A stretch of DNA of 64,000 nucleotides from Holophagales bacterium (GCA_016714815.1 JADKBZ010000016.1:116609-180608), one strand, 5' to 3'; numbered from the stretch's first letter, positions 6,019 to 58,550 are shown. The notes: a model not told the origin generated them from the letters alone. Numbers and translations: made by a program.

Positions 6019-6082
6019 CGGGGGAATCGTCTCACGGGGCGGACGCGGCGCCTGGCGGCCGGGCGAAGGTAGACTTTCCGGC

Positions 6083-7441
6083 ATGGCGAACGCTTCCACC
6101 GACCTCTTCGCCCGCCGCCGCGAGCGCTTCTTCGACCGCGTGAAGGAAGGGGTGGCGATCCTCTTCGCCACGCCCGAGCAGCACCTGAGCTGGGACGGGG
6201 AGTACCGCTACCGGCCCGACCCTGATCTCTTCTACCTCACCGGTTTCGGCGAGCCGGAGACGGTCGCGGTCCTCGACGCCGGGGCTCGGGCGTTCTTCCT
6301 CTTCGTGCGGCCGAGGGACCGCGAGCGGGAGACGTGGACCGGGCGCCGGGCCGGGACGAAGGGAGCGGTGAAGGTCCACGGGGCGGACGCGGCGTGGGAC
6401 GTGGCCGAGCTGGAGAAGAAGCTCCCCGAGCTGATCCGCGGCTCGTCGAGCCTCCACTACGCCTTTGGCATCGACGAGAAGCGCGACCTCCTCGTCGCGT
6501 CGATCCTCGGCCGCTTCCGGCGAGAGGCGCGCAACCCGCAGCGGGGGCCGGTCGCCGTGAACGACGTGACGGACGTGATCCACGAGCTGCGCCTGCGCAA
6601 GGAGCCGGAGGAGATCGCCCTGATGGAGCGGGCCGCGGCGATCGCGGCGGCGGCGCACGACGAGGCGCGGGCGATCGCGCGGCCGGGGCGGATGGAGTAC
6701 GAGGTGGAGGCGGCGATCGGGGCGCACTTCCGGAGGGAAGGGGCGTCGGGGCCGTCGTACGAGACGATCGTCGCCTCCGGCCCGAACGCGACGACGCTCC
6801 ACTACGTCGAGAACGACCGGAAGATCGAGGAGGGCGACCTCGTCCTCGTCGACGCCGGTTGCGAGGTCGACGGGTACGCGTCCGACATCACGCGGACGTT
6901 CCCTGCCTCGGGGCGCTTCGCTCCGGAGCAGGAGGCGATCTACCGCGTCGTCCTCGCGGCCCAGCACGCGGCCATCGCGAAGGTGAGGCCGGGCGGGCCG
7001 TTCCAGGACGTCCACGACGCGGCGGTGGAGGTGCTCGTCGACGGCCTCCTCGAGCTGGGACTCCTCTCGGGGAAGCGGAAGAAGGTGATCGAGAAGGGGA
7101 TCTTCACCCGCTTCTACATGCACCGGACGTCGCACTGGCTCGGGATGGACGTCCACGACCGGGGCCGCTACCACGACGCGAAGGGGGAGTGGCGGCTGCT
7201 GGAGCCTGGGATGGTGCTGACGGTGGAGCCGGGGCTCTACATCCGCCCCGACGAGAAGAAGGTGCCGTCGGCGTTCCTCGGGATCGGCGTGAGGATCGAG
7301 GACGACGTCCTCGTCACGGCGGAAGGGCACCGGGTCCTGACGTCGGCCGCGCCGAAGTCGGTCGAGGCGATGTGCGCGCACGGGGAGAAGCGGGCGGTGC
7401 GGCCGGCGAAGGCGGCTCCAAAGGCGGCCCGGCCCAGGTAA
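6083..7441 (+). CDS. pepP: Xaa-Pro aminopeptidase (M24B, aminopeptidase P)
   Basis: A creatinase/AMP_N N-terminal domain is followed by an M24 catalytic domain. Motifs DLVLVDAGCEVDGYASDITRTF, HWLGMDVHD and VLTVEPGLY are present. Confidence 0.85.
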   Translation: MANASTDLFARRRERFFDRVKEGVAILFATPEQHLSWDGEYRYRPDPDLFYLTGFGEPETVAVLDAGARAFFLFVRPRDRERETWTGRRAGTKGAVKVHGADAAWDVAELEKKLPELIRGSSSLHYAFGIDEKRDLLVASILGRFRREARNPQRGPVAVNDVTDVIHELRLRKEPEEIALMERAAAIAAAAHDEARAIARPGRMEYEVEAAIGAHFRREGASGPSYETIVASGPNATTLHYVENDRKIEEGDLVLVDAGCEVDGYASDITRTFPASGRFAPEQEAIYRVVLAAQHAAIAKVRPGGPFQDVHDAAVEVLVDGLLELGLLSGKRKKVIEKGIFTRFYMHRTSHWLGMDVHDRGRYHDAKGEWRLLEPGMVLTVEPGLYIRPDEKKVPSAFLGIGVRIEDDVLVTAEGHRVLTSAAPKSVEAMCAHGEKRAVRPAKAAPKAARPR

Positions 7442-22100: not shown

Positions 22101-24857
22101 GGCACCGGCACGCTCACGACGCGCGTGAAGCTGAACACCGTCTCGGCGACCGGCGCGATGATCATCGAGTCGTTCGAGGTGACCTGCTCCGCGGGGGACA
22201 GGCCGGTCTACGAGATGAAGACCGTCTTCGGCTTCTTCCCGCCGGCCGCGCTCGCCAACCAGGCCGGTCTGCCGATCCCCGATGCCCACCGCGAGCTCCT
22301 CGAGAGGCCGAGCGACTTCCTCGTCGACCTCACCGCACGGCCGCCGGCATTCTTCGACCCGCGCCGGCCGCGGCTCGCCGGTCCGATGCTCCTGATGCTC
22401 GACCGCGTCGACGGCCTCTGGCCCGCCGCGGGGAAGGCGGGCCTCGGCCAGCTGCGGGCCGTGAAGGACGTCGACACGGACGAGTGGTTCTTCAAGGCCC
22501 ACTTCTTCCAGGACCCGGTGCAGCCCGGCTCCCTCGGGATCGAGGCGATGATCCAGGCGCTGCAGCTCTTCATGCTCCAGGCGGGGATGGACGACGGGAT
22601 CGCCGCGCCCCGCTTCGAGGCCATCGGCGTGGAAACGCCCCTGACCTGGAAGTACCGCGGGCAGGTTCTCCCGCACCACCGGACCGTTCACACCACGATC
22701 GAGATCACGGCGGCGGGGCGGGACGAGCGGGGTGCGTGGGCGACGTGCGACGCGAGCCTCTGGTCGGACGGGCGGCGGATCTACGAGGCGGCGAACCTCG
22801 GCATGCGGATCGTCGCGGGCGAGCCGGAATCCGGTGCCCGCGCAGGGGAGATCGTCCTCGACCCCGGCCACGACCTGTGGCTACAGGACCACCGTCCCAC
22901 CTGGACCGCGCCCGCCCTCCCGATGATGAGCATGGTCGACCTCCTCGCCCGCGGCTCCACGGGCGACGGTCCGGTGACCGGCCTCAGGGACCTGCGGGTG
23001 AGCGGCTGGTTCCTCGTGAGCGAGCCGCGGCGGCTCCGCTGTGAGCAGTGCGGCGAGAGCGTCCGGCTTCTCGCCGTCGAGCCGGACGGCGAGAAGGAGG
23101 TCGCGCGCGCGTCGGTGCGGCACGGGAAATACGCGCCCCGCCCCGATCCGCTTCCCGAGGCCCGTGGCGTGGAGGTCCCGCTCCCTTACGAAACGGGCGC
23201 GCTCTTCCACGGACCGGCATTCCAGGTCGTCGAGCGCCTCGTGATGGGGCGGGGAGAGTGCTCGAGCCTGCTTCGTGCTGCGAGCGGCGTCCCCGCGAGC
23301 CTTCTCAATCCGGGGCTTCTCGACGGCGCCACGCACGGCATTCCCCACGCGGACCTCCACTCGTGGGACGACGCTTCCGATCCGGGGAAGGTCGCCTTCC
23401 CCGCGTTCCTCCCCGAGATCGACTTTTTCGGGCCGACGCCGGTCACGGGGACCCTCCGCTGCGAGGTCCGCCAGCAGCCGTACTTCGGAAGCGCCGACTA
23501 CCCGGTCTTCCTCGTCCAGCTCATCGGGCCCGATGGCGTCTGGTGCCAGCTCCGGCTCGTCGAGTCGTCCTTTCCCAAGGGGCCGCTCGGCTCGGCGGAG
23601 CCGGCCGCGCGCCGCGAGTTTCTCCGCGACCGTTCCCCGGTCGAGGGGCTGCGCCTCTCGCGCGTCGAGGAGGGCGTCACGGTCCTGACGGACGCCCAGG
23701 TCGCGGCGACCGACTGGCTGGCCGGCACCGTCGCGGCCCTCTACGGCTCGCGCGAGACCGAGGCGATCGCCCGCGCCGAGCACGCCGCGGCCGCCCACGC
23801 GCTCCACCCGGGCCGGGTCTTCGCGCAGCTCCCGCTCACCCGCTTCGACCTCGAGGCCCGCCGCACGGGGGGTGAGGTGCGCGTCTCGGGCGACGGCCGG
23901 GGAACGCTCGATCTCTCGCCCCTCCGGAAGTTCTGGACGCGCTGGTTCGACCGCGGGCCGTGGCCCGTAGAGGACCTCTACTACGGCCTCGTCGGCCGCT
24001 TCGTCGACCGCGTCGTCGTCGAGGACCCGGCGGCCTACGCCGCGCTGCGGGGCCGGAGCGTCCTCTACCTCGCGAACCACCAGACGGGCGTCGAGTCGCT
24101 CCTCTTCTCGATCGTCGCGTCGGCGCTGAACGAGGTCCCGACGGTGACCCTCGCCAAGATCGAGCACAGGGAGACCTGGCTCGGGCGGCTCATCGCGCAC
24201 GCCTTCTCGTACCCGGGCGTCACCGACCCGCGCGTCATGACGTTCTTCGACCGGGAGGACAAGGCGAGCCTCGTCCGCGTCATCGGCGAGCTCGCCGCCG
24301 AGATGACGGGGCCGGGGCGCTCCGTCATGGTCCACGTGGAGGGAACGCGCGCCCTGAGCTGCCGCAGCCGGGTCGAGAAGATGAGCGGCGCCTTCCTCGA
24401 CCTGGCGATGAAGGTCGGTGCCCCCGTCGTCCCGGTGCGGTTCGTCGGCGGCCTCCCCGCGGACCCCCTCGAGACGCGCCTCGAGTTCCCCTTCGGGATG
24501 GGCCGCCAGGAGATCCACTTCGGTGCCCCCCTGATGCCCGAGCGCCTCGCCGCCCTTCACTACGGCGCCCGCAAGGAGCTCGTCCTCTCGGCGATCAACG
24601 GCCTCGGAATCCCGAATGCGAGGGAGCGGCCCTTCCCCGGCGACCCGGTGTTCGCGGGTCGCGTGAACGCCTGGCAGGCCGCGTGCGGCGTCGCTCACGA
24701 GCACGCGACGCTCCACGAGGTCCTCGCGGAGCTGGAGAACCCCGGAGACGAAATCCGCCGGCTCCTGGCGGCCCCGTCCGCGGCCGCGCTCGCGGGGGAC
24801 GAGAGCCCGGAGGGGCGGTGGCTCGCGGAGCTGGGCCGCAGACTGCTGGGAGGGTGA
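16155..24857 (+). CDS. pfa3: PUFA synthase Pfa3/PfaC-like protein: KS, CLF, AT, 2 x FabA-like DH (each with a pseudo-DH partner) and a C-terminal AGPAT (1-acylglycerol-3-phosphate acyltransferase) domain
   Basis: The KS Cys is in IDAACASALYAL and the CLF lacks a Cys. The AT has GYSSGE. FabA motifs are FFDGHFKNDPCMPGTLMFEG and FFKAHFFQDPVQPGSLGIEA. The C-terminal acyltransferase motifs are LANHQTGVES and HVEGTR. ATG at 16155 lies 4 nt after the pfaA stop. Confidence 0.95.
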   Translation: MAFAPIAIVGRSCVLPGALDPSALWELVAAGRDLVGPAPEGRWGLDRDQILRDAGGPAPDAAWSDRGGYVEGFETIWNPEGFGVGAKELDGLDQLVPWVLHTAREAFRDAGDEKAGIAGATAAGSVTRPRTGAIFGNLGFPSEGMAAYARSVWTGGGLGPGGIAVDPRNRFMSGGTAALLRRALGLGAGVFSIDAACASALYALKLACDRLHDGDADVMLAGAVQRADDLFLHVGFTALGALSRSGRSRPFHREADGLVPAEGAAFVVLKRLDDARRDGNTIHGVIRGVGLANDGRGKGLLAPSEEGQERAIRAAYEEAGLGPERVSLIEAHATGTPVGDGAEVRSTGAVYAGLSGVPLGSLKSNLGHLITVAGVAGLLKVLGAMKAGMRPPTLHAGEPLDALAGSPFRLVERLEPWPSDGPRVASVSAFGFGGNNAHLIVSEDDPELGGSSASRAGASRAPLAPALAVVGLGCAVSSAADRTRFAQALFSSESLLDGRGEGRMGPVELDLDGLRFPPRDLGQTLPQQLAILRAAGEALDGCGALPRERTGIFVGMEPDPEVARWGTRWRLARTAREAGAPPEWLGKARDAVVPVLESASVVGTMPNIPANRLSSQLDLGGRAFTVQAGEASGTVALSLAMRALRRGELDAALVGAVDLSSESVQRSAIGSLAPEGKAIPPGDAAVLLIVKRLEDAERDGNRVYALIDEVEEETERKAKKAKEAEKKTKQKEEGPGGDEALLELDGEGPMSLVPRFGHAWAASDLVHVAAAALSLHHRRLPGGKPWLPQDPSARVAGVGMTNGPRIRLTEAGGHARRAEDDPPRLHLFAGADRTEVMDALRTGREGTGEESGARLAFVATGGSFANVRARALSHLETGAPAGPGIHFRERPLGGELGFIFAGAGAAYRGMGRDLLERLPSLAVSLSRRSRRLPRALAWSFEDDSREPTVLEQLWGASALCQLHAGLTLGLLGLTPDAWMGYSSGETNALLASGTWNDIDALVAEGESSGLFTRELGGSFAAVERAWGVPVRWASWTVLAPVADVKAALAGEERVHLAIVHGDDECVVSGDEEACARVVEALGPSRGVRLGYPLAVHVPELDAVREEWLSLHRRPTTPPPPAGSNPPARFYTNATGVRYVPTSESCAQAILGQANRTLDLRPTILAAWEDGVRVFVEHGPQAACGRWIRAILGEREALVVSLDRKGQGLEATLDAVAALVAAGVPMRAGALGELDAMLRAERPSPPSGRSVTFPAHLPEISLPKVPAPGLPSGLAGARVMAPAPALPAVVDEDWAPRRRDPDVPAAPPVPPAETVPLPVRAVHAAVSPSPVSVASPVLDGFRAHVAQLSQIQQDFVLAQQALHERFLSGRGAAMETFLYAARLAGTAESVPASPPGPTVSTSTPADVRVIPMSPAAAARPAASPSVEAPRAGGDPVGPRFDRGQLEIHAGGRISGLFGPEFAAQDRHVRQVRMPLPPLLLADRVVGLAAEPASMGKGTIWTETDVTWDSWYLHQGHMPAGVMIEAGQADLMLISYLGVDLLNRGERVYRLLGCELTYHGDLPRAGDTLRFGIHVDGHAAQGAVRLMFFHYDCVNGGRPQLTVRKGQAGFFTDEELAASAGCLWSPEEQPVVPDPRLASPAARSERSRFEREDLDAFARGDAFACFGPGFEKAQTHTRSPRIQEGRMLLQDRVTDLDVAGGAWGRGYLRAELDVRPDLWFFDGHFKNDPCMPGTLMFEGCLQAMAFYLAALGFTLPRDGWRFRPVPDLPYQLQCRGQVTPSSHRLVTEVFVEEVVDGPVPTLYADLLCTVDGLKAFHARRVALELVPDWPLEAMPALLAEAARDTRPTAESGGFRFDQASLLACAWGKPSKAFGPIYTRFDGPGRVARLPGPPYLFMSRVTRVDGPIGVMKPGASVTVEYDVPADAWYFGENGCRTMPFAVLLEAVLQPCGWLSSYVGSALSVDEELGFRNLDGTGTLLGEVFPGTGTLTTRVKLNTVSATGAMIIESFEVTCSAGDRPVYEMKTVFGFFPPAALANQAGLPIPDAHRELLERPSDFLVDLTARPPAFFDPRRPRLAGPMLLMLDRVDGLWPAAGKAGLGQLRAVKDVDTDEWFFKAHFFQDPVQPGSLGIEAMIQALQLFMLQAGMDDGIAAPRFEAIGVETPLTWKYRGQVLPHHRTVHTTIEITAAGRDERGAWATCDASLWSDGRRIYEAANLGMRIVAGEPESGARAGEIVLDPGHDLWLQDHRPTWTAPALPMMSMVDLLARGSTGDGPVTGLRDLRVSGWFLVSEPRRLRCEQCGESVRLLAVEPDGEKEVARASVRHGKYAPRPDPLPEARGVEVPLPYETGALFHGPAFQVVERLVMGRGECSSLLRAASGVPASLLNPGLLDGATHGIPHADLHSWDDASDPGKVAFPAFLPEIDFFGPTPVTGTLRCEVRQQPYFGSADYPVFLVQLIGPDGVWCQLRLVESSFPKGPLGSAEPAARREFLRDRSPVEGLRLSRVEEGVTVLTDAQVAATDWLAGTVAALYGSRETEAIARAEHAAAAHALHPGRVFAQLPLTRFDLEARRTGGEVRVSGDGRGTLDLSPLRKFWTRWFDRGPWPVEDLYYGLVGRFVDRVVVEDPAAYAALRGRSVLYLANHQTGVESLLFSIVASALNEVPTVTLAKIEHRETWLGRLIAHAFSYPGVTDPRVMTFFDREDKASLVRVIGELAAEMTGPGRSVMVHVEGTRALSCRSRVEKMSGAFLDLAMKVGAPVVPVRFVGGLPADPLETRLEFPFGMGRQEIHFGAPLMPERLAALHYGARKELVLSAINGLGIPNARERPFPGDPVFAGRVNAWQAACGVAHEHATLHEVLAELENPGDEIRRLLAAPSAAALAGDESPEGRWLAELGRRLLGG

Positions 24858-36442: not shown

Positions 36443-37450
36443 ATGATGGCGACCGGACGATTCCCCTCGAGTTGTCGCGACCTGCCCCTCCTCGTCCTCG
36501 CAGCGCTCGCGCTCCTGGCAGCCCCGGCCTCGGCCGTGGTTGTGACGAACGAGTTCGCGGTCCCGACGGTGGACGGCGCGCCCAACGGCATCACCACCGG
36601 CCCCGACGGCAACCTCTGGTTCACGGAGTACAACGGCAACCGGATCGGCCGGATCACGCCTTCGGGAGTCGTCACGGAGTTCACGGTCCCGACGGCGTAC
36701 GGCGCTCCGTCCAGCATCACCACCGGCCCCGACGGCAACCTCTGGTTCACGGAGAGCACCGGTAACCGGATCGGCCGGATCACGACGGCCGGAGCCGTCA
36801 CGGAGTTCGCCGCGGGTGGCGGCCCCTCCGGCATCGTGGCCGGCCCCGACGGAAACCTCTGGTTCACGGAGGTTTCCGGCAACAGGATCGGCCGGATCAC
36901 GACAGCCGGAGCCGTCACGGAGTTCACGCTCCCGACCGCGGACAGCTACCCTCATCAGATCACTTCCGGTCCCGACGGGAACCTCTGGTTCACGGAGTAC
37001 GGCGGCAACAGGATCGGACGGATCACGACCGCGGGAGTGATCACGGAGTTCACGGTCCCGACGGCGAGAGCCGCTCTCACCGGCATCACCTCCGGTCCGG
37101 ATGGCAACCTCTGGTTCACGGAGTACCTCGGCAACAGGATCGGTCGGATCACGCCTTCGGGAGTCGTCACGGAGTTCGCGATCCCGACGGAGGAAAGCGC
37201 TCCCTTCGGCATCACGACCGGCCCCGATGGTGCTCTCTGGTTTACGGAGAGCAATGGCAACCGGATCGGCCGGATCACCACCTCGGGAGTCGTCACGGAG
37301 TTCGGGATCCCGACAGCGGCCAGCTGCCCTCATCGGATCACGACCGGCCCCGACGGCGCCCTCTGGTTCACGGAGAACGGCGTCCACAAGATCGGTCGGC
37401 TCGTCGCATCCCCGGCGCCGGTGGAAGTGGTGTCGATCGGCGTGGACTGA
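36443..37450 (+). CDS. secreted Vgb-family (streptogramin-B-lyase-like) seven-bladed beta-propeller protein
   Basis: SD AGGAGGG lies upstream of the ATG at 36443. After a signal peptide (MMATGRFPSSCRDLPLLVLAALALLAAPASA) come seven regular ~42-aa repeats ITTGPDGNLWFTE..GNRIGRIT..G.VTEF.VPT. Confidence 0.75.
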   Translation: MMATGRFPSSCRDLPLLVLAALALLAAPASAVVVTNEFAVPTVDGAPNGITTGPDGNLWFTEYNGNRIGRITPSGVVTEFTVPTAYGAPSSITTGPDGNLWFTESTGNRIGRITTAGAVTEFAAGGGPSGIVAGPDGNLWFTEVSGNRIGRITTAGAVTEFTLPTADSYPHQITSGPDGNLWFTEYGGNRIGRITTAGVITEFTVPTARAALTGITSGPDGNLWFTEYLGNRIGRITPSGVVTEFAIPTEESAPFGITTGPDGALWFTESNGNRIGRITTSGVVTEFGIPTAASCPHRITTGPDGALWFTENGVHKIGRLVASPAPVEVVSIGVD

Positions 37451-39938: not shown

Positions 39939-40387
39939 CGCGCCGGTCGCGGCGGCTATCGGCGGGGGGCAGGCCATGCCTGCGCCAGGGTCGGCACCTC
40001 GGCCGCGGCGCCCGCGCGGCGCGCCGCCGCGAGACGCTGCTGCACGACTCGCAGGTGGGCCAAAGAGGGGGACGCCGACGCAGGCGGCGGCGGATGATGA
40101 ACGTCCGGCCCCGGGGTCCAGCGGCTCTGCCTGCTGGACCTGGCTCTGAGCCCGGCGTCCATCGCAGGCGGGCGAGGCTGACGGGGCTCTGCAGGCGATA
40201 GCGGGCGAGAGCCTCGAGTGCCCACCATCAGCTCTCGGACGGTCTGCCAGGCGGCGGAGCAGAGAGGGCCCGGCGGCCCCCGGTGGATGACCTGATAGCG
40301 CTGGAGGCGTCGGGTCCGTTAGCGCCGCGGCATCAAGGGGATCGATGACGACGACGAAATCGGTCTGCGCTGACAGGACTGCCTGTC

Positions 40388-40590
40388 GCTCAGGGCTCGG
40401 CGCCTCCGTACCTGGCAGGTCGAACGCGGCATCTCTCACGAGCACGCGACGCTCCGCGAGGTCCTGGCGGAGCTGGAGAATCCCGGGGCCGAGGTCCGTC
40501 GGCTCCCGCCGGCTCCATCCGCCGCCGCCCTCGCCGGGGACGAGACCCCGAAAGGGCGGCGGCTTCCGGAAATGGCCCGGAGGGCGCTCG
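40388..40590 (+). pseudogene. diverged copy of the pfa3 3' end (last ~55 codons) without a stop codon, abutting the 3' end of the truncated flotillin copy
   Basis: Translation ISHEHATLREVLAELENPGAEVRRLPPAPSAAALAGDETPKGRRLPEMARRALGGG aligns with the pfa3 C-terminus VAHEHATLHEVLAELENPGDEIRRLLAAPSAAALAGDESPEGRWLAELGRRLLGG. The DNA aligns with 24661-24857. Confidence 0.5.
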
Positions 40591-41758
40591 GCGGCGGACC
40601 CCTTCTTCAGCTCCCCGTCGTCGTCTTCTCCGCCGGCGCCCCGAGCCTCGCGACGACCTTCGCGAGGTCGACGCCAAACGCCGTCTTCACCTGCTCGACG
40701 AGCTGGATTCCCTGCGTTACGCGGGCAGAGGCGGGCAGGTAGGAGATCCGGTCGACCCTGACGCTCTGGATCGTCTCGACGAGAGACGACATGACGGTCT
40801 GGAGCTTCTGCATCAGGAAGATGTCGCGGGCGTTGGGGCCGGCGGCCTTCCAGGTTTCGATCATCTGCGTCAGGACGGCGGCGGTCGCGCGGCCGTCCTC
40901 GACGATCTTGGCGGCCTTGCCGCGCGCCTCGGCCTGCCTCTTCTCCATGTCGGCGCGGGCGGGGGCGACGACGTCGGCGTCGAGCTGGAGGCGGACCTGC
41001 TCGATGCGCGCCTGCTGCACCTTCAGCTCGGCCTCGGCCTTGGCGATGGCGGTGGTGACCTTGCCGACCGCCTCGGCGACCATCGCCTCGCGGCCGGTCT
41101 CGCACTGCATGATCCGCTTGTCGGCTTCCGCGCGGGCGATGGCGCCGTCGGCGTCGATCAGGGCGAGGCGCGACGCGAGGCCGTTCTCGGCTTCCCGCAT
41201 GGTGGCCTCGGCGTGGGCCTGCGCCTCGGCGATCCGGGCGCTCTTGTCGAGGGCGGCCGACTGCTTGCGGCCGAGGGAGTTGAGGTAGCCGACGTCGTCG
41301 GAGACGTTCTGGACCTTCAGGACGTCGAGCGTCAGGCCGAGGCGGGAGAGGTCGTGCTCGGCCTCCTCGAGGAGCTTCTCGGCGAAGCGGAGCTTGTCCT
41401 GGTTGACTTCTTCGGGGGTGAGCTGGGAGAGGACGCCGCGCAGATTCCCCTCGAGGGTGTCCTTGGCGACCTGGATGATCTGCGGACGACCCTTCCCGAG
41501 ATGCCGTTCGAGCGCGTTGTTGAGGAGCGGCTGGTGGCCCGCGACCTTCAGGTTGGCGACGCCGGCGACGGTGAGCGGGATGCCGCCCTTGGAGTAGGCG
41601 TTTCTCACGGCGACGTCGACGGTCATGTTGGTGATGTCCATCCGGTCGACCCGCTCCAGGAGCGGCGTGCGAAGGGAGCTGTCTCCCTTGACGATCCGGT
41701 AGCCGACGGGGCGGCCGTCGACCGTCGACTTGCCGCCGGAGAAGACGAGGACCTCGTT
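40571..41758. repeat. left copy of a ~1.2-kb direct repeat (flotillin gene body); its partner is 45917-47116
   Basis: The central ~620 bp is virtually identical between copies, with more substitutions toward both edges. Similarity ends abruptly after gaggacctcgtt (41758 in this copy, 47116 in the other). Confidence 0.85.
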
Positions 41759-41785
41759 CTTCTCTCCCTCACTCCCTGCCGGCAC
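40607..41785 (-). pseudogene. 5'-truncated flotillin/SPFH (YqiK-like) paralog lacking the N-terminal membrane anchor
   Basis: The product is identical over most of its length to the flotillin at 45966-47213. Its N-terminus (MPAGSEGEKNEVLVFSGG) replaces the MIGDLGSVVGVAIGVVLFFGVAALFVVKRLF anchor. Homology ends at the island junction. Confidence 0.5.
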
Positions 41786-42175
41786 TCGGCTGGCTGACCC
41801 CGAAAGAAATTCTCAGAGACCTGTTGTAAAAAGCCGGGCCTCGCGCAGCTTAGCTATAGCGGACAAAGGCTGAGTCCGCCTTTTCCTCCTCGATCAGGAG
41901 GCAGAGGAGGCTGTGAGGAGTGTGAACAGAAAACTCTCTTCCTCGACCGGGTGCCAGCGGCGGTCCGTCCCGGCAGGGCCAAGGGGAAGTGAATGGATGC
42001 CGAAGTCGTCGACCGGACTCTCCGGCTGTCGCGAAACGCCAGGCGTGTACTCGCGGCCCTTACGCCACGCGCGGGCGCCACCTAATAGTCGAACCGCCAG
42101 CCACTCTGCAGGTAAGGGCGCACGCAAGCGGCGTCCGCAAGCTGCGACGGCGTCCGGAAGCAAGAAGGAGTAGAG

Positions 42176-44983
42176 TTGAAGTCCCCTAAGTCATTCTGCC
42201 CGCGACCAATGATCACTATGGCGGTTCTCTCTTCGTTTATCCTGTCCTTACCGACTCCGGCCGCTGAGCCCGGGAAAGATGCTCTCGCCGGGACGCTGGT
42301 CATCCGCTCCGGAAAGTCCCCTGTCGAGGCGGTCCTCAAGGACACCCCGGAACTGGTGGGGATAGAACAGTACTGCCAGAACGGCCAGTGTATCGTCCTC
42401 CCTCGAAGCGGAGCCGAGTTGGAAGCGCTCAGGGCCTTGGAGAAGGCTGGGGAGGTCGAACTGGAGCCGTTCCCCGACGCGAGAAGGATTTACTTCGCCA
42501 AGGCCACCTACGATGCGGACGCAGGCGCTTTCGACGCCCAGTTCCATGGCAGCGCAGAGGTCGGCGGTCCCTCGGCCCTGGGCCAGTGGGCGGTCATCCT
42601 AAAGGCCTTCTTGAGCCCAGCCTGGCAGAAAGACTTCGAGAACGCCGGGTTCTTCCTGGGAGATTCCCTGGGACCGGTCGCCTACCAGCTATTCGGCCCG
42701 ACGGAGGCACTCCAAGCTCTCCTTACAAGAGTGCCGTATATCGCAGCGACCGTTCCAATCCCCCACGGGATCAAGCGCTTTCGTGTCGACGAGCCACTTC
42801 CAGGGGATGAGGACGGCGCCTCAGCCCCGACAACGGTTGCGATCTTCGCCTTGGAGGAGTCGCCGGCTCGAACGCTTCTTGAGAGGCGGGAAGGGTTACC
42901 GCTTTCGGTCGTCTACACGTCGAAGAAGACCGTCGCCTATCGCGCATCTCTGACCCGGGACGAGGCGCTCTATCTCAGCACCTTCCCCGATGTCGTCGCC
43001 GTCATGCGAGAGACGGCTACGGCGAGTCCGTCGGATGAACGCAGCAACCGGATCATCGCGGGAGCATTTCAGGACCCGTCCTCATCGTGGCCACTGTCTC
43101 TCACACCGAACACGAGCCCTCCGTTCTGGAACGGCTACCTCGCGTCTCTGGCCAGCATCGGCATTCACCCTGAGAATCAGACAATCGGCTTTCTCGACAG
43201 TGGCGTGGGGCTCTCGCCGATGCTCACCTGCCCTCCGGCCCTCGTTGATCCGACTAGCGGCAAGTGCAGCCTCACTCTCTATGACAACGGCGGCGTCGAC
43301 CTGAGGAGCATCGCGGACGTCGTCGAGGAGTTCGGCGATCCGGCGCTTCGGGGAAACGACTACCTTAGCCATGGAACTCTGACGACGGCGATCGCCGCCG
43401 GCTTTGCTACTCTTGTCAGAAGCCGGGATGACGAACAGTACTCCATGAGCCAGGGGGTCGCGCCGGGGGCCAAGATAGCGATGAGCCGAACGCTGGTGGG
43501 GCTCGGGCTGAGCTGCATCCCGGACTCCACGCCCCCTCAATTCAAGTCCTATCGGAGATTCCCGAACATGCCTGGGGGCGGATATCTGTTCTACGATGAT
43601 CTGAAGGTCCGTTACTCTCTTGCAGTTCTAAGTCAGCCGGTAAACCCAGACATCCTGGCGCCAGATGGTGTCATGGGGGCAGGCGCAACGCTTTTCAATC
43701 ACAGCTGGAACTTGCCCTCTATTTCGGACTACGGCCCGGTGGATATCATTCTGGACAAGAGCGCGCGGACGCTCTCGTCGGTTACGTTCGATTTCGGGCC
43801 GGATCACGATCACCCCAACGTTCTCACCGGGCCGGCGGTTCCGGCGACGCATGTGGTCTCGGCAGGCAATACGGACACGTCTTCCAACCCAACGATGGTC
43901 ACTTCTCCTGGGACGGCCAAGAACGTGATCACCGTAGGAGCGACGGAAAGCTACAACCAGCTGCCCCCGACCTCGTACCCTGTCGGCTGTCGAGCGGGAG
44001 AACTGGCCGATGCCGACAACCCGCGCCAGATTGCGATTCTGAGCCGGTTCGGGTATCCGAACAACCGCCTGAAACCCGACATCGTGGCGCCGGGGACGCG
44101 CGTCTTCGCACCCTTTAGTGAAGCGTATAACACGAGCGAATCCTGCATAGGGAAGCTGGCGTGCTATTCGGCTGTGGGCACTGTGAAGCGGCCGCACATC
44201 ATCACTTCCGGCACGAGCTTCGCCGCGCCGGCCGTCACTGGCGTTGTAGCGCTGCTTCGCGAGTGGTTTGGCGTCCTTGGAAAACCAGTGCCGAGCCCGG
44301 CCATGATACGAGCTACCTTGATCGTCGGCGCTCAGAACCTCGTCGAATTCCGAAGTGCCTGGGGCGCCTGCCACGACGCCAATGGCGGCCAGTGGTGGTG
44401 CGGCGACATGAGGCCTGCTCCCGATCAGTACCAGGGATGGGGGGGCGTGTCGCTTGCCCGCTACTTCAGCCCCGCGTCGAACTACTTCTTCCATGACCAG
44501 GAGAACGACACGATTCTGTGCCAAGACTGCTCAGGTCCCGGAAGCCAACCCTGGACGACCACGCTGACCATAAACGATTCTTCGAAGGTGGTTCGACTCG
44601 CGGTGGCCTGGACCGACGCGGCGGGGACGGAGGTCCTCGCGCCGTTCGACAACCTCAAGAACGATCTCGATCTGGAGGTCCGCGCAACCGGGAGCGACGG
44701 AATCCCACACGTCTGGTACGGAAACGTCTTCTATTCGAATCGGGACGATCTGGCGCGAACCGAGAACTCGCTCCGGGATCCGGCCTCCCCGGTCTCGAGG
44801 GATCGAAAGAACAACCAGGAGAAAGCTGCGATCGCCCCGGTGGGGCAGCCGAATGGCCTCCCGGCCGGTGCGACGACACTCACGATCACAGTCAGGGCCT
44901 TCAACCTCACCGAGAACGGCCTCATTCCCGACGACCCGGCAAGGAGACAAGACTTTGCCATAGCAGTGGAGAACGCACATTGA
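42176..44983 (+). CDS. secreted subtilisin-like serine peptidase (S8 family), 935 aa, in a lower-GC island
   Basis: SD AAGGAG lies 5 nt before the TTG at 42176 (alternative ATG at 42209). Signal peptide present. Catalytic triad motifs are FLDSGVG (Asp), HGTLTTAIAAG (His) and GTSFAAPAVTGVVALL (Ser). There is a long C-terminal extension. Confidence 0.85.
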   Translation: MKSPKSFCPRPMITMAVLSSFILSLPTPAAEPGKDALAGTLVIRSGKSPVEAVLKDTPELVGIEQYCQNGQCIVLPRSGAELEALRALEKAGEVELEPFPDARRIYFAKATYDADAGAFDAQFHGSAEVGGPSALGQWAVILKAFLSPAWQKDFENAGFFLGDSLGPVAYQLFGPTEALQALLTRVPYIAATVPIPHGIKRFRVDEPLPGDEDGASAPTTVAIFALEESPARTLLERREGLPLSVVYTSKKTVAYRASLTRDEALYLSTFPDVVAVMRETATASPSDERSNRIIAGAFQDPSSSWPLSLTPNTSPPFWNGYLASLASIGIHPENQTIGFLDSGVGLSPMLTCPPALVDPTSGKCSLTLYDNGGVDLRSIADVVEEFGDPALRGNDYLSHGTLTTAIAAGFATLVRSRDDEQYSMSQGVAPGAKIAMSRTLVGLGLSCIPDSTPPQFKSYRRFPNMPGGGYLFYDDLKVRYSLAVLSQPVNPDILAPDGVMGAGATLFNHSWNLPSISDYGPVDIILDKSARTLSSVTFDFGPDHDHPNVLTGPAVPATHVVSAGNTDTSSNPTMVTSPGTAKNVITVGATESYNQLPPTSYPVGCRAGELADADNPRQIAILSRFGYPNNRLKPDIVAPGTRVFAPFSEAYNTSESCIGKLACYSAVGTVKRPHIITSGTSFAAPAVTGVVALLREWFGVLGKPVPSPAMIRATLIVGAQNLVEFRSAWGACHDANGGQWWCGDMRPAPDQYQGWGGVSLARYFSPASNYFFHDQENDTILCQDCSGPGSQPWTTTLTINDSSKVVRLAVAWTDAAGTEVLAPFDNLKNDLDLEVRATGSDGIPHVWYGNVFYSNRDDLARTENSLRDPASPVSRDRKNNQEKAAIAPVGQPNGLPAGATTLTITVRAFNLTENGLIPDDPARRQDFAIAVENAH

Positions 44984-45891
44984 AGAAGCTTCTTCTCGTC
45001 GTCACTCTCGGCGTCGCTGCGACCGCTCTTCCCGCGGCGGAACAGAAGCGTTACTACGTCCCGCTCATTCATGCCCAGACGGGGTTGGAGATCATTCCGG
45101 GTGCGACTCCGGAAGATACTCAAGTGATTCAAACGCTGTGGATGGGGAATATCTCAGCGTTCAATTCGAGCAACGTAACGGCTTCGATCACACCCACGGC
45201 CGTATACGGAGGGTTCGTTTTCAGGCCGGGCAGCCACTCGATAGGTCTCGAAGCGGGAACAGGCGATCAGTTCGTCCGGTGGCCGTATGCGGGATTTGCA
45301 GGACCCAGTATCGGTCCGGTCGGCTTCGCCGAGCTGATGGCGGACACCGGGATGGTCGTGAACGCGGGGGTCGAGAAGGCTCAATACTGCGCGGGATGCC
45401 CCATACCGGATCGGGTCGATCAAGCGGCCCTGGTCTCGCAGGGGCGCTCGGCGATTCCCGTGTTCGAGGAGCTGTTCCCGGCAGGCCGATCGGTCATCTG
45501 CGGCGAAGTCAACCTCGGGGCGCCCCGCCAAATCTGCGGGAAGCCGGCGAATCAGCAGTACCCGCGACGCGTGAACGTGACGCTCTTCAACGCCGGAAGC
45601 GCCCCCGCGACGTTCAAGGTCGAGGCGATTCCGCTCTACACGGACCCCGACCCGATCTTCTCGCAGACGGTCACCGTGGCGGCGAAGGACGTGATCCAGC
45701 TGAACGACGTGCCGATTCCGCGGATCGAGAACGGGCACATGACGGTCGACTTCGACGTCTACGTCTGGATCCGGATCCACTGCGACCAGCCCTTCCTGGC
45801 GTACGCCAGCTCGATCTTCGAGGGTGGGGCGACGGGGTCGATGCCCTTCGAAGTCTTCACGCCACGGCTGGCCGCCGAGACCGGGCCGTGA
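44980..45891 (+). CDS. secreted hypothetical protein (about 303 aa) downstream of the S8 peptidase
   Basis: The TTG start overlaps the peptidase stop. Signal peptide LKKLLLVVTLGVAATALPAAE. Cys-containing, with no recognised domain. Confidence 0.45.
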   Translation: MKKLLLVVTLGVAATALPAAEQKRYYVPLIHAQTGLEIIPGATPEDTQVIQTLWMGNISAFNSSNVTASITPTAVYGGFVFRPGSHSIGLEAGTGDQFVRWPYAGFAGPSIGPVGFAELMADTGMVVNAGVEKAQYCAGCPIPDRVDQAALVSQGRSAIPVFEELFPAGRSVICGEVNLGAPRQICGKPANQQYPRRVNVTLFNAGSAPATFKVEAIPLYTDPDPIFSQTVTVAAKDVIQLNDVPIPRIENGHMTVDFDVYVWIRIHCDQPFLAYASSIFEGGATGSMPFEVFTPRLAAETGP

Positions 45892-45916
45892 GAAATAGCT
45901 AGGTCAGTTCCCGGAT

Positions 45917-47116
45917 GGAGGGGCGCCGCCGGAGGCGGCGGCGCCTACCCCTTCTCCGCCGGTGCCTACCCCTTCTCTTCCGGCGCCCCGAGCCGCGCGA
46001 CGACCTTCGCCAGGTCGACGCCGAAGGCGGTCTTGACCTGCTCGACGAGCTGGATCCCCTGCGTCACGCGCGCGTCCGCCGGGAGGTAGGAGATCCGGTC
46101 GACCCTGACGCTCTGGATCGTCTCGACGAGAGACGACATGACGGTCTGGAGCTTCTGCATCAGGAAGATGTCGCGGGCGTTGGGGCCGGCGGCCTTCCAG
46201 GTTTCGATCATCTGCGTCAGGACGGCGGCGGTCGCGCGGCCGTCCTCGACGATCTTGGCGGCCTTGCCGCGCGCCTCGGCCTGCCTCTTCTCCATGTCGG
46301 CGCGGGCGGGGGCGACGACGTCGGCGTCGAGCTGGAGGCGGACCTGCTCGATGCGCGCCTGCTGGACCTTCAGCTCGGCCTCGGCCTTGGCGATGGCGGT
46401 GGTGACCTTTCCGACCGCTTCGGCGACCATCGCCTCGCGGCCGGTCTCGCACTGCATGATCCGCTTGTCGGCTTCGGCGCGGGCGATCGCGCCGTCGGCG
46501 TCGATCAGGGCGAGGCGCGACGCGAGGCCGTTCTCGGCTTCCCGCATGGTGGCCTCGGCGTGGGCCTGCGCCTCGGCGATCCGGGCGCTCTTGTCGAGGG
46601 CGGCCGACTGCTTGCGGCCGAGGGAGTTGAGGTAGCCGACGTCGTCGGAGACGTTCTGGACCTTCAGGACGTCGAGCGTCAGGCCGAGGCGGGAGAGGTC
46701 GTGCTCGGCCTCCTCGAGGAGCTTCTCGGCGAAGCGGAGCTTGTCCTGGTTGACCTCCTCGGGGGTGAGCTGGGAGAGAACGCCGCGGAGGTTGCCTTCG
46801 AGGGTGTCCTTGGCGACCTGGATGATCTGCGGGCGGCCTTTGCCGAGGAGGCGCTCGAGGGCGTTGTTGAGGAGCGGCTGGTGGCCGGCGACCTTGAGGT
46901 TGGCGACGCCGGCGACGGTGAGCGGGATGCCTCCCTTGGAGTAGGCGTTGCTCACGGCGACGTCGACGGTCATGTTGGTGATGTCCATCCGGTCGACGCG
47001 CTCCAGGAGCGGAGTACGCAGGGAGCTGCCCCCCTTGACGATCCGGTAGCCGACGGCGCGGCCGTCGACGGTCGACTTGCCGCCGGAGAAGACGAGGACC
47101 TCGTTCGGGCTGCAGA
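45917..47116. repeat. right copy of the ~1.2-kb flotillin direct repeat
   Basis: See 40571-41758. The 3' flank of this copy (45917-45960) also carries a ~35-bp remnant resembling the extreme pfa3 tail. Confidence 0.85.
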
Positions 47117-47213
47117 TGTGGAAGAGGCGCTTGACGACGAAGAGCGCCGCCACGCCGAAAAAGAGGACGACGCCGATGGCGACGCCGACGACGGAACCGA
47201 GATCGCCGATCAT
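45966..47213 (-). CDS. flotillin family (SPFH/band-7, YqiK-like) protein, full length
   Basis: N-terminal TM anchor, an SPFH domain and a long Ala/Glu-rich coiled-coil (AEAQAHAEATMREAENGLASRLALIDADGAIARAEAD...). Confidence 0.9.
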   Translation of the reverse strand: MIGDLGSVVGVAIGVVLFFGVAALFVVKRLFHICSPNEVLVFSGGKSTVDGRAVGYRIVKGGSSLRTPLLERVDRMDITNMTVDVAVSNAYSKGGIPLTVAGVANLKVAGHQPLLNNALERLLGKGRPQIIQVAKDTLEGNLRGVLSQLTPEEVNQDKLRFAEKLLEEAEHDLSRLGLTLDVLKVQNVSDDVGYLNSLGRKQSAALDKSARIAEAQAHAEATMREAENGLASRLALIDADGAIARAEADKRIMQCETGREAMVAEAVGKVTTAIAKAEAELKVQQARIEQVRLQLDADVVAPARADMEKRQAEARGKAAKIVEDGRATAAVLTQMIETWKAAGPNARDIFLMQKLQTVMSSLVETIQSVRVDRISYLPADARVTQGIQLVEQVKTAFGVDLAKVVARLGAPEEKG

Positions 47214-48484
47214 CGCGCCACCTCCGGCCGGACCGGCGAGAGGAGCGCGACGACGTCGACCCCCGTCGTCCGGCTCACCTCGGCCAGGACGCTGCGCACC
47301 GCCGCCGGGTAGGAAGCGACGTACGTCGCGAGAGCCGAGCCGTCGCCGTTGTCGAGGAGGTGGGTCTCGCCGATCTCCATCGCCTTCACCCGCTCGACGA
47401 CCGTCCGGAGGATCTGCTCGAGGTTGTGGATCAGGAAGATGTCCTTCGCGTCGGGACCGGCGCTCGCCCAGGCCGCGGTCATCAGCTTCAGCACCTCGGC
47501 GAGGGCCCAGCCGTTCTCCTCGATCGTCGCGGCGTCCCCGCGTGCCGCGAGCGCGGCCGCCTGCTGCGCGGCCTGCGCGGGGAGGACCATCTCGGCCTGC
47601 AGGCGCGTCTCTTCCAGCGTCTTTCGGATGGCCTGGAGCTTCTGCTCGGCCTCGGCGCGGGCCTGGAGGGCCGCCTGGATGGCCGTCTCCTCGGCGGCCT
47701 TCGCCTTCGCCTCGAGCTGCGCCTTCAGGGTCTTCAGCTCGTTCTCCTTCTGGGCGATGGTCGTTCCCGCCTGCTGGTTGGCGACCTCGCCGGCGCGCCG
47801 CGACGCGGCCTCTCCCTGCGAGGCTTCAGACCGGGCGAGGGATTCGGCCATCTCCGCGTCGCGCAGGACCATGGCGATCCGCGCGCGGCCGATGGAGGCG
47901 AGGTAGTTCGCCTCGTCGGAGACGTTCTGGATCTTCAGCGTGTCGAGCGTGAGCCCGAGCTTGCGGAAGTCCCCCTCGGCTTCGTCGACGAGGCCGGTGG
48001 CGAACTTGAGGCGGTCCTCGTTGACCTCCTCGGGGGTGAGGTTCGCGAGGACGCCGCGCAGGTGTCCCTCGAGGCTCTCCTTGGCGACTCGGGCGATCTC
48101 CGCCGGATCGCGGCCGAGGAAGCGCTCGATGGCGTTCCCGACGACCTTCGGGTCGGAGGCGATCTTCACGTTCGCGATGGCGTGGACCTTCAGCGGAATG
48201 CCGCCCTTCGAGTAGGCGTTCGACACCTTCAGGTCGATCGGGATCGACAGGAGGCTCATCCGGTCGACCTGCTCGAGGAGCGGGATTCGCACGGACCGGC
48301 CTCCCAGGACGACGCGGTAGCCCACCTGGCTTCCGTCGGCGAGCTTGCGCTTGCGGCCGGAGAAGATGACGACCTGGTTCGGCGGGCAGATGACGACGAT
48401 CGAGCGGGCGAGGGCCGAGAGGATGCCGAGCGCCACGGCGCCTGCAATGACCCCGGCCCCGATACCGGCGAGAGAGTCGAGCAC
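47210..48484 (-). CDS. second, divergent flotillin-family (SPFH) protein
   Basis: N-terminal TM helix, an SPFH domain and a coiled-coil region, about 40% identical to the downstream flotillin. A 4-bp start/stop overlap links it to the same operon. Confidence 0.85.
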   Translation of the reverse strand: MLDSLAGIGAGVIAGAVALGILSALARSIVVICPPNQVVIFSGRKRKLADGSQVGYRVVLGGRSVRIPLLEQVDRMSLLSIPIDLKVSNAYSKGGIPLKVHAIANVKIASDPKVVGNAIERFLGRDPAEIARVAKESLEGHLRGVLANLTPEEVNEDRLKFATGLVDEAEGDFRKLGLTLDTLKIQNVSDEANYLASIGRARIAMVLRDAEMAESLARSEASQGEAASRRAGEVANQQAGTTIAQKENELKTLKAQLEAKAKAAEETAIQAALQARAEAEQKLQAIRKTLEETRLQAEMVLPAQAAQQAAALAARGDAATIEENGWALAEVLKLMTAAWASAGPDAKDIFLIHNLEQILRTVVERVKAMEIGETHLLDNGDGSALATYVASYPAAVRSVLAEVSRTTGVDVVALLSPVRPEVAR

Positions 48485-48513: not shown

Positions 48514-49062
48514 CTATTCCTTCCAGGGAGCGGGCTCGACCTCGGCAATCCCTTCCCGGAAGCGGACGACGACGACGCGTTCGCGGATCTCGATGGGGAC
48601 CCCTCCCGTGCGGGCCGGGACCTCGACGTCCTGGTCGCCGACGTGGAGGCGGATCTTGCCGAGGCCGTCGGGAAGGAGAGGAAGGACGACTTCCCCTTCC
48701 GAGCCGAGGAAGGCCTCCGTCGAGGCCGGGCCGGTCGCCGAGCCGCTCCCGAGGGAGCGGAAGAGGGCCGCCACGCCCCCTCCGACGACGAAGCCGAGGA
48801 CGATGGCGGCCGGGACGTGGAGACCGGCGCTGACCCCGAGGAGGGAAAGGGCGGTGCCGGCCATGCCGAAGGCGCCGAGAGCGTAGGTCCAGAAACGGAG
48901 TGAGAGGAGGTTGGTGAGAAAGGCGCCGTGGTCGGCGTCGCCGTGTCCGGCCCCGTGGTCGTCGCCCGTTCCCGTGTCGTGCCCGCCGCCGTCTCCCTGG
49001 AAGACGGACGCGCCGATGAGGACGAGGCCGAAGGCCAGCGCCGCGAGGTAGACGGTCAGCAT
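48514..49062 (-). CDS. NfeD/YqiJ-like membrane protein, first gene of the nfeD-floT-floT operon
   Basis: Two TM helices with a His/Asp/Gly-rich loop, then a C-terminal OB-fold-like soluble domain (EGEVVLPLLPDGLGKIRLHVGDQDVEVPART). Confidence 0.7.
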   Translation of the reverse strand: MLTVYLAALAFGLVLIGASVFQGDGGGHDTGTGDDHGAGHGDADHGAFLTNLLSLRFWTYALGAFGMAGTALSLLGVSAGLHVPAAIVLGFVVGGGVAALFRSLGSGSATGPASTEAFLGSEGEVVLPLLPDGLGKIRLHVGDQDVEVPARTGGVPIEIRERVVVVRFREGIAEVEPAPWKE

Positions 49063-57768: not shown

Positions 57769-58480
57769 GTGCCGAAAAGAGCTGATCTGAAGTCGATCCT
57801 GGTCCTCGGTTCCGGGCCGATCATCATCGGCCAGGCGTGCGAGTTCGACTACTCGGGGACCCTGCCTGCGTCCTGCGCAAGGAAGGGTTCCGGGTCGTTC
57901 TCGTCAACTCGAACCCGGCGACGATCATGACCGACCCGGACTTCGCCGACGCGACCTACATCGAGCCGCTCGACGTCGCGACCGTGGAGAAGGTCATCGC
58001 GAGGGAGCGCCCCGACGCCCTCCTCCCGACGGTCGGCGGGCAGACGGCGCTGAACCTCGCGGTCGCCCTCGACAAGGCCGGTGTCCTCGCCCGGTACGGC
58101 GTGGAGCTCCTCGGCGCCTCGGCGCACTCGGTGGAGCTGGGGGAGGACCGTCTCCTCTTCAAGGAGGCGATGCAGAAGGCGGGGCGTCGACGTCCTGCGC
58201 TCCGGCATGGCCCGGACCGTCGACGAGGGCGCGAGATCGCGCACCCGTTCGGCTTCCCGGTCGTCGTCCGCCCCTCCTACACGCTCGGCGGCACGGGAGG
58301 CGGGATCGCTTTCAACGCCGACGACTTCCAGGCGATCGTCAAGCGCGGCCTCCTCCTCTCGCCCGTCAATGAGATGCGTCACGCGGCCGAGCGTCTCTGC
58401 AAAGGCGTCCCATCGCCCGAACGGCTTCCGCGAATCGTCCCGAGTCAAATATCAGGAAGCCTCAGTAACCACCAACCGCG
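57769..58480 (+). pseudogene. carB: carB (carbamoyl-phosphate synthase large subunit) remnant: first ~200 codons only, with at least three frameshifts, truncated at an island boundary
   Basis: [31 protein letters not shown] then shifts frame to ...[36 protein letters not shown]... The GVDVLRSGMARTVDEGA segment is again out of frame. Homology to CarB fades after GLLLSP (about 58.37 kb), and the remaining ~2.5 kb of the gene is absent. Confidence 0.7.
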
Positions 58481-58550
58481 GGTAAACGTGGCCTGCCACT
58501 CGTAAGACGTCAATTCCCTCGACGCGAGGGAACCCTCGGAGGCAATCGTC

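Follow-up and report, generated by a model that had tools for sequence, protein, structure and literature searches.

Loci in which a complete gene is followed by displaced, 5'-truncated copies of its own 3' end, with other genes in between, are familiar from the orphan 3' modules found downstream of rhs and cdiA. In Campbell integration, as practised with suicide vectors and studied at lacZ of E. coli, the insert comes to lie between direct repeats of the homologous segment, one copy is cut where the carried fragment ends, a fragment that extends to the end of the target gene restores it, and the repeats stay recombinogenic; at lacZ, a single crossover of a circular molecule was the main route of integration for constructs bearing one homology arm, and 109-950 bp of the locus became duplicated in the process (PMC3240628). 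In the Toleman model of ISCR-type capture, aberrant rolling-circle transposition produces a circle that is rescued by homologous recombination, and the duplicated 3'-conserved segment of complex class 1 integrons is accepted to have arisen in this way (PMC7707992). Insertion sequences (IS) of the related IS91 family carry out one-ended transposition, co-mobilising DNA beyond terIS in 1-14% of events, and for several members, IS801 and IS1294 among them, GTTC is both the terIS cleavage site and the target tetranucleotide (PMC13181058). Hotspots that have no mobile-element genes and recombine at their flanking core genes are also common (PMC5635113). The present locus lies in a 64,000-nucleotide stretch of DNA, here called the window, from a Holophagales bacterium (GCA_016714815.1, JADKBZ010000016.1:116609-180608). 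In it, a cassette of two genes, encoding an S8 (subtilase) peptidase and a partner protein, stands between an intact flotillin-like gene, flotB, and a truncated copy of that gene, flotB'. We consider the region to be the scar of one insertion into flotB, in which the cassette came with a replacement for flotB codons 37-415, and give this reading a probability of about 0.65. Related genomes and contigs are designated by L numbers.

The two copies of flotB sequence form a gap-free direct repeat of 1135 bp, offset by 5347 nt, with 50 mismatches (95.6% identity). A previous sequence-only reading of the window had recognized the repeat and put it, slightly generously, at 1.2 kb. As that reading also noticed, the copies are nearly identical in the centre and diverge toward the edges: 5 mismatches fall within the 671 bp at 40737-41407 (99.3% identity) and 45 within the 464 bp of the flanks, a clustering for which the Fisher p is 1.8e-13. 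On the 5' side of flotB, the repeat breaks off sharply at 41759/41760. Codons 1-36 (MIGDLGSVVGVAIGVVLFFGVAALFVVKRLFHICSP), which read as a hydrophobic N-terminal membrane anchor, are missing from the left copy, exactly as had been claimed. Between the copies lies an island that is indeed lower in GC than the remaining window (Table 1), and GC at third codon positions is lower too, at 0.74 in the peptidase gene and 0.80 in the partner gene vs 0.88-0.96 in the neighbouring genes. Its right end had been set at 45916 and has to be moved to 45971. There are no inverted repeats at the ends of the island and neither a transposase gene nor a site-specific recombinase within it; its gene content is the peptidase and its partner only. 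ARAGORN finds no tRNA gene in the window, an Rfam scan of 36-50 kb gives only sub-threshold chance matches, and a consensus scan for promoters and terminators yields no sigma-70-like promoter and a single terminator-like site, inside flotB, which is below chance expectation. An integrase-type genomic island or prophage was considered and set aside, since the locus has no recombinase, 1135-bp repeats instead of short att sites, no tRNA target, and no viral or plasmid relative. A composite transposon or IS-bounded unit was likewise rejected, given that terminal inverted repeats and an internal transposase are lacking and that the IS trace is one-sided and outside the repeats.

The ancestral arrangement can be read from relatives. 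A scan of species-representative genomes with flotB returned about 20 close relatives, all of them Holophagales or Thermoanaerobaculia metagenome-assembled genomes (MAGs), whose source, where a record or isolate name tells it, is wastewater or a digester; the host of the window is an uncultured Holophagales (Acidobacteriota) bacterium from activated sludge. Empty-site alleles, for which the sequence-only reading had recommended a search, are present in L014, L015, and L020. In these, flotB directly meets the 3' end of a PfaA-like polyketide synthase (PKS) gene on the opposite strand, and in L015 and L020 the two open reading frame (ORF) calls overlap by 4 nt. In the window, the intact PKS gene is far from flotB, and a fragment of a PKS 3' end, termed P3', lies next to flotB'. 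P3' matches the last part of the PKS gene of the window (24670-24853) at 80-82% identity, and it is collinear with the flotB-PKS junction of L014, L015, L017, and L020. Read from 41759 to 40411, flotB' and P3' together follow the junction of the relatives over 1349 nt, at 86-87% identity. Because of this collinearity, 40411-41759 is a fossil of the ancestral tail-to-tail flotB/PKS junction. The right copy runs past the flotB stop codon into a 21-nt tandem duplication, a GC-rich hairpin, and the partner gene, an arrangement shared with the sister species L072. Since the full flotB has different downstream DNA than the fossil, the cassette would have entered with replacement codons 37-415 while the old 3' part of the gene was displaced, which supports the earlier proposal that the island arrived together with a flotillin fragment. 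With a period of 21 nt, the tandem duplication takes in the final 15 nt of flotB, stop codon included, and was apparently left by an earlier joining event.

The differences between the copies carry information of their own. In the repeat flanks, synonymous divergence (dS) is 0.39 and nonsynonymous divergence (dN) is 0.021, a dN/dS of 0.05, and this dS exceeds the values that separate flotB of the window from its orthologues in L029 (0.18), L072 (0.21), and L012 (0.28). Of the 50 differences, 43 fall on third codon positions, and for 30 sites the relatives include both states. No more than about 10 changes look neutral, and three of these are replacements at residues invariant in ten relatives. 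Decay in place should have spread changes evenly over the codon positions, which is not seen; the flanks therefore derive from two functional alleles of different lineages that recombination brought together. Near-identical strains, in turn, differ in patches in which one copy has taken the bases of the other. L005 (GCA_020054605.1) has an island 100% identical to that of the window, and its left copy has the right-copy base at 5/5 central mismatch sites; in L084 (GCA_016722225.1), whose island differs at 2 of 4212 sites, the left copy differs at 7 clustered sites (40652-40736). Such patches show that gene conversion between the two copies is still going on, and it explains the near-identical centre. 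Together, the mosaic, the flank dS with its low dN/dS, and the strain-specific conversion patches argue for recombination and gene conversion and not a single clean duplication, in line with what the sequence-only reading had suggested. A mosaic is also evident between the window and L072: across 45291-45890, identity leaps from 80% in one 200-bp block of the partner gene to 99% in the next two, and the centre of flotB is 98.5% identical. These jumps indicate recent inter-species recombination tracts.

In the series of events that we favour, flotB and the PfaA-like PKS gene would originally have met tail to tail at their 3' ends. Next, 5.35 kb of DNA would have entered flotB after codon 36: first the self-contained S8/partner cassette, upstream motif included, and behind it flotB codons 37-415. 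This new part of flotB would have been joined in frame to resident codons 1-36, so that the operon kept an intact gene, and the old codons 37-414 would have been displaced by 5.3 kb, still attached to the PKS 3' fragment and an IS91-family remnant. The preferred and most likely route of joining would be a single homologous crossover of a circularised fragment, that is, a Campbell-type integration, with the circle derived from a lineage like L072 in which the cassette already abutted flotB; in a variant, an IS91-type insertion next to the breakpoint GTTC would give the same product. Gene conversion between the copies would have continued after the event. We infer the circular intermediate, the donor lineage, and the timing. 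What is seen agrees with a Campbell product: the repeat corresponds to the segment of homology, one copy is cut at the end of the fragment, heterologous DNA lies between the copies, the target gene is restored, and the target site is unoccupied in L014, L015, and L020. Unlike the laboratory integrations, this would be a natural event in an uncultured bacterium, and the repeat is a mosaic, because there was a difference of ~8-15% between the alleles of donor and recipient, part of which was later homogenised.

Several observations weigh against this series of events. Neither a circular form nor an island-free allele of the species was seen, and an exact-pattern scan of metagenome contigs with the unique 3' tail of the left copy gave 0 matches. 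The near-identical 671-bp centre requires an extra step, gene conversion after integration, of the sort seen between strains. The sister species L072 has the cassette-flotB junction and no relic; the insertion may thus be older than the separation of the two species, or the relic may have come in on its own. The IS91 remnant with its terIS side toward the relic, together with the GTTC end, may speak for involvement of a transposase rather than pure homologous recombination. When the three sections of the repeat were compared by identity with 10 orthologues, the differences amounted to a few sites and did not separate donor from recipient parts.

Three other explanations have to be considered. 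One is an assembly artefact, in which two strains were joined into a chimera or a repeat was collapsed and flotB is truly present only once. This is highly improbable, and an artefact is excluded for practical purposes, because three assemblies from different projects carry both junctions, the one at 41759/41760 and the one between cassette and flotB: the window itself, L084, a 152-kb contig that is 99.5% identical to the window over 22.8 kb, and L003/L005, a 10.8-kb contig. The sequence-only reading was thus correct in treating the repeat as real. The right junction is found additionally on two further metagenome contigs. Short-read contigs of the species (L001, L002, L004, L007, L008) do break within the repeat, as a false join might lead one to expect; however, they end where the copies become identical, as a real repeat gives, and the k127 contig L004 stops exactly 127 nt past the last copy-distinguishing site. 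In each assembly, the left and right copies differ at 48-50 sites. An old duplication in place is improbable as well. Here, part of flotB would have been duplicated, the cassette inserted or swapped between the copies, and the truncated copy retained by selection as a soluble, possibly dominant-negative paralogue, with gene conversion homogenising the centre. The truncated frame is intact over 392 codons, continuing to a GTG at 41785, and its dN/dS relative to the full copy is the 0.05 given above. L023, L065, and L069 have the same topology with S8 and partner proteins only 36-37% identical to those of the window, which could mean an old scaffold with a swap of cassettes by double crossover in the repeats. 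Yet the fragments in relatives differ in their 5' limits and have internal deletions, so there is no conserved truncated gene; no Shine-Dalgarno sequence precedes the GTG; and the left copy has three amino acid changes at positions invariant in 10 relatives. A flank dS above that to the orthologues of other species, combined with so few neutral-looking changes, clashes with long unselected residence, and long residence as a selected gene is contradicted by the absence of the copy from L029 and L072. Because equivalent fragments in relatives have internal deletions, flotB', which lacks both membrane anchor and ribosome-binding site, is most likely a relic, and its loss of function, presumed by the sequence-only reading, is the most likely state. 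Nothing supports the dominant-negative role that had also been suggested.

The remaining alternative starts from the IS91-family remnant beside P3'. This remnant is collinear with L065 5290-6166, where an ORF matches Pfam Y2_Tnp (PF04986) at 47.8 bits; the window keeps only fragments of the transposase gene, seen as a 26-aa match and collinear DNA. On its upstream side is a terIS-like palindrome, CTGACAGGnnnGCCTGTCG (~40372-40391), common to L065 and L070, and this side faces P3'-flotB', which ends exactly after a GTTC at 41756-41759, read on the + strand, in the ori-to-ter direction. The cassette would then already have stood beside flotB, as in L072, and the relic would have moved in by one-ended rolling-circle transposition: an element in the PKS 3' end of another lineage would have overrun terIS and copied P3' and flotB up to GTTC, and the unit of IS91, P3', and flotB codons 414-37 would have landed upstream of the S8 gene. 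We regard this as unlikely, although much fits. GTTC is the terIS tetranucleotide of IS801 and IS1294, and one-ended transposition occurs at the 1-14% cited above (PMC13181058); the flotB fragments of L017, L065, L069, and L070 have remnants of this element nearby; L072 has the cassette and no relic; and both the high dS and the 80% identity of P3' agree with a source in another lineage. Of 11 flotillin-fragment junctions, 3 have GTTC, CTTG, or a complement of these flush with them, in a test that was post hoc and with boundaries uncertain by 1-2 nt. Sites of the GTTC/CTTG type make up 1.4% of flotB positions, and the GTTC at the end of flotB' is compatible with coincidence. The IS91 features also lend support to the variant of the favoured series of events, with the GTTC as target of the insertion. 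Against this alternative of a transposed relic, a chance landing 4.2 kb from the resident flotB, in direct orientation, is needed, whereas integration by homology predicts cassette, truncated copy, IS91, P3', and full flotB in succession, unlike the arrangement here. Neither an oriIS end nor a target tetranucleotide is visible at the left edge (39939-40057). In addition, L017 and L069 have IS91-P3 joined to full-length flotB, so IS91-P3'-flotB can be the older resident state that received the cassette, as the insertion into flotB would have it. The likeness to ISCR/IS91 capture (PMC7707992; PMC13181058) nevertheless extends to a duplicated host segment that flanks the cargo with an IS91-family remnant beside it, to a breakpoint on GTTC, and to fragments of variable length in related genomes. 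Unlike in those systems, the transposase gene is decayed and lies outside the repeat-bracketed island, an oriIS is not found, and the cargo is a secreted protease module and not a resistance gene; a part played by the element here is possible.

Table 1. Features of the flotB locus and its surroundings in the window
Feature	Coordinates	Strand	Remarks
PfaA-like PKS gene, intact	16155-24857	+	2900 aa; 21 kb from flotB; Pfam domains taken from the L072 orthologue
IS91-family (Y2 HUH) transposase gene remnant, decayed, with upstream end	40058-40391	-	between p308 and P3'
P3', PKS 3'-terminal fragment	40411-40601	+	190 bp, last ~63 codons; stop codon lost
flotB', truncated flotillin copy	40607-41785	-	left repeat copy 40625-41759 = flotB codons 37-413
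Low-GC island	41760-45971	+	4212 bp; GC 0.624 vs 0.709 in remaining window
Cassette motif TGTTGTAAAAAGCCGGGCCTCGCGCAGCTTAG	41822-41853	+	~30 nt; ~320 nt upstream of S8 start
Weak hairpin GCGGAC..GTCCGC	41859-41885	+	6-bp stem, then CTTTTCC; directly 3' of motif
S8 (subtilase) peptidase	42176-44983	+	935 aa from TTG; signal-peptide-like N-terminus
Partner protein	44980-45891	+	303 aa; TTG start; signal peptide; predicted all-beta fold
GC-rich hairpin	~45921-45945		between convergent partner and flotB genes; precedes 21-nt duplication
Tandem duplication of extreme end of flotB	45943-45984	.	21 nt, GCCTACCCCTTCTC x2; common to sister species L072
flotB, intact flotillin-like SPFH gene	45966-47213	-	415 aa; holds right repeat copy 45972-47106
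flotA	47210-48484	-	same operon; 44% aa identity to flotB
Small NfeD-like membrane protein gene	48514-49062	-	182 aa; same operon

Across species, the interval between flotB and the PKS gene measures 0 kb in L015 and L020, 4.2 kb in L013, 6.5 kb in L072, 7.5 kb in L029, and 21 kb in the window, and its gene content is largely unrelated among species whose flotB is about 90% identical. L016 provides an independent parallel. Its direct repeat of 1359 bp (5610-6968 and 11042-12400; 2 mismatches, 99.85% identical) consists of the end of flotA and flotB, and brackets a different cargo of 4.07 kb with a GC of 0.636 vs a background of 0.74. That cargo encodes a 660-aa secreted protein, and the C-terminal domain of this protein recurs at the end of a Calx-beta-like cargo protein of 1185 aa in L029. 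Fragments of flotB with other limits and internal deletions are present in L017, L023, and L065, as well as L068-L071, the 5' limits among relatives falling at codons 20, 37, 80, or 101. L023 and L069 repeat the topology PKS, flotB relic, S8, partner, full flotB, and in L065 the S8/partner pair adjoins a flotA/flotB fragment; each of these three has a flotB about 90% identical to that of the window, against the low identity of the S8 and partner proteins noted above. With different flotB fragments, different cargo, and IS91-family remnants present in relatives at this place, the flotB-PKS locus is, to judge from these comparisons, a recurrent hotspot. Further mobile-element genes seen in this interval in relatives are an ISL3 transposase downstream of flotB in L012 (6284-7579) and, in L068 (1111-2310), a 399-aa protein without Pfam match that adjoins a flotB fragment. 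The PKS 3' fragment, the IS91-family remnant, and the recurrence of flotB fragments in other species had been missed by the sequence-only reading.

The locus invites comparison with core-gene-flanked transfer hotspots (PMC5635113), which it resembles in the 0-21 kb of unrelated cargo, in an island without an integrase gene, and in its mosaic likeness to L072, where a single gene ranges from 80% to 99% identity. It differs in that a double crossover in the flanks duplicates nothing, whereas here fragments of flotB and PKS were duplicated and left as relics, and in the presence of IS remnants (IS91-like; ISL3 in L012). On the whole, this is a known kind of island gain at a recombination hotspot, fairly ordinary and no new kind of system. 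The locus provides a natural case in which a cassette was gained without a recognisable integrase and without loss of the target gene: the incoming DNA provides a new gene end, and the old end stays as a dated fossil. Because the empty site, the fossil junction, the strain-specific conversion patches, and the parallel events are found side by side, the region is usable as a marker of recombination-driven gene flow in uncultured Acidobacteriota of wastewater. The repeats of 1.1 kb also make the island prone to loss or amplification. Two aspects deserve to be flagged, a rare secreted protease with a partner that moves as a module between contexts, and a possible role of IS91-family elements in scattering fragments of host genes. 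A more speculative idea, which we hold only tentatively and think unlikely, is that the S8/partner pair is a recombinase-less mobile module of Acidobacteriota. It would spread in the company of a substitute piece of some conserved gene of the host ("homology hitch-hiking"), and rolling-circle transposases of the IS91 family might launch it in trans; flotB-PKS would be a recurrent landing pad on which successive arrivals stack displaced gene ends.

The cargo itself is a compact unit. The peptidase was correctly described by the sequence-only reading as a TTG-started subtilase with a Shine-Dalgarno sequence: AAGGAG lies 5 nt upstream of the possible start TTG at 42176. The protein matches Pfam Peptidase_S8 (PF00082) at 86.3 bits, and its triad motifs read as intact, with putative D341 (DSG), H399 (HGT), and S681 (GTSFAAP) plus N565; it is remote from the solved subtilases (E about 1e-11). 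Its stop codon overlaps the TTG start of the partner gene in the sequence TTGA (44980-44983). The cassette would thus provide the cell with a secreted subtilase and a beta-sandwich partner translated along with it. Because of the signal peptides, the start-stop overlap, and the predicted fold, our guess is that the partner serves the secreted protease as a binding or accessory subunit and is secreted with it. Upstream of the peptidase gene, the motif given in Table 1 recurs ahead of the S8 genes of L065 (~3992), L077 (~333), and L087 (~4369), whose proteins are 37-55% identical to that of the window. It is probably a regulatory site of the cassette, although it could also be the end of a mobile module. 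The hairpin and T-tract directly downstream, which had been singled out as standing at the left end of the island with no upstream gene on the same strand, does exist, but it is weak, is not called by the terminator scan, and is not convincing as an orphan terminator. It is more likely part of the cassette's own leader, given its place directly after a motif that distant S8 cassettes likewise have upstream.

Relatives of the peptidase are few. A word-indexed search gave 15 at E <= 1e-10, with identities from 65% down to 37%, and the module is rare, with 216 clusters among 1.84 billion representatives. Where a source is named, the homologues of both the peptidase and the partner all come from Acidobacteriota (Holophagales, Thermoanaerobaculia) MAGs, on contigs with a GC of 0.59-0.73; the island is thus not taxonomically foreign, contrary to the earlier thought that foreign DNA had been trapped. 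Elsewhere, the two genes stay together as a pair and adjoin integrase, DDE transposase, or Replic_Relax genes, with no flotillin near. A scan of viral contigs with a profile of the partner found no relative, and tblastn against a plasmid collection found distant S8 domains only and nothing for the partner. Membership of p308 in the cassette was rejected, as no p308 homologue lies near any other S8 cassette. A functional link between protease and flotillin, by analogy with the stomatin/NfeD protease, was also set aside, since most S8-partner modules are far from any flotillin.

In activated-sludge contigs L085 (3520-7641), L086 (4990-9111), and L093 (4508-7021), a full S8 gene is followed by two or three paralogues of the partner gene, separated by short 3'-terminal remnants of S8; in L093, the tandem unit is 1285-1300 bp, with copies 72-92% identical. 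The S8/partner module itself forms arrays of displaced fragments. These arrays of an S8 3' remnant with another partner, like the flotB/flotB' topology, resemble the orphan modules of rhs and cdiA. Unlike those modules, however, the C-termini of flotB are not polymorphic and there is no toxin/immunity signature; the partner is a secreted protein with a predicted beta-sandwich, and the C-terminal end of S8 is conserved. Pfam and NCBIfam detect no toxin or immunity domain, and the flotB C-termini are conserved between the copies. An Rhs/CdiA-like polymorphic system was rejected for the S8/partner pair on the grounds that conservation in S8 lies at its C-terminal end and that the partner is a secreted protein.

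The intact flotB is the last gene of an operon in the order NfeD-like gene, flotA, flotB. Pfam Band_7/SPFH (PF01145) is matched by flotB at 74.6, by flotB' at 68.9, and by flotA at 70.4 bits, with a cut-off of 23.6; in contrast, the NCBIfam FloT equivalog NF058507 scores 140.5 for flotB and 149.3 bits for flotA, under the cut-off of 700. On these profile scores, both would be flotillin-like proteins and not FloT equivalogs. The 182-aa protein matches the NfeD C-terminal domain weakly (E 0.0019; 18.8 bits, under a cut-off of 29.1 bits). The flotB product is 100% identical on the independent metagenome contigs L001 and L002. The operon is like other bacterial flotillin operons (NfeD - FloT/FloA) in having anchored SPFH/Band 7 genes with an Ala/Glu-rich coiled coil behind a gene for a small membrane protein, which here may be NfeD-like. 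It is unlike them in its two tandem paralogues, in the extra anchorless copy, and in FloT scores far below the cut-off (140 vs 700 bits).

On the other side of the fossil junction, the PKS end shows a mirrored topology of full gene, cargo, and displaced 3' fragment. This older direct repeat (24670-24853 and 40411-40594; 184 nt, 80% identical) brackets 15.5 kb of normal GC that encode LysR, WS/DGAT, acyl-CoA dehydrogenase, APH, Vgb lyase, DUF1206, MgtC, and p308. A second low-GC stretch (0.61-0.63), as low as the island, extends from ~57600 to the end of the window at 64000. It starts directly after an internal fragment of carB (57837-58505; Pfam CPSase_L_D1/D2) that is cut at both ends, and encodes a 1047-aa protein with a weak phosphoribosyltransferase match and a receiver-like protein; it may be another island edged by a core-gene fragment, with its far end beyond the window. 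Two tandem repeats were also noted: units of 306 bp (88% identical) at 13209-13814, upstream of the PKS gene, possibly represent tandem carrier-protein domains, and units of 126 bp at 36531-37430 lie in the gene for a Vgb-lyase-like beta-propeller.

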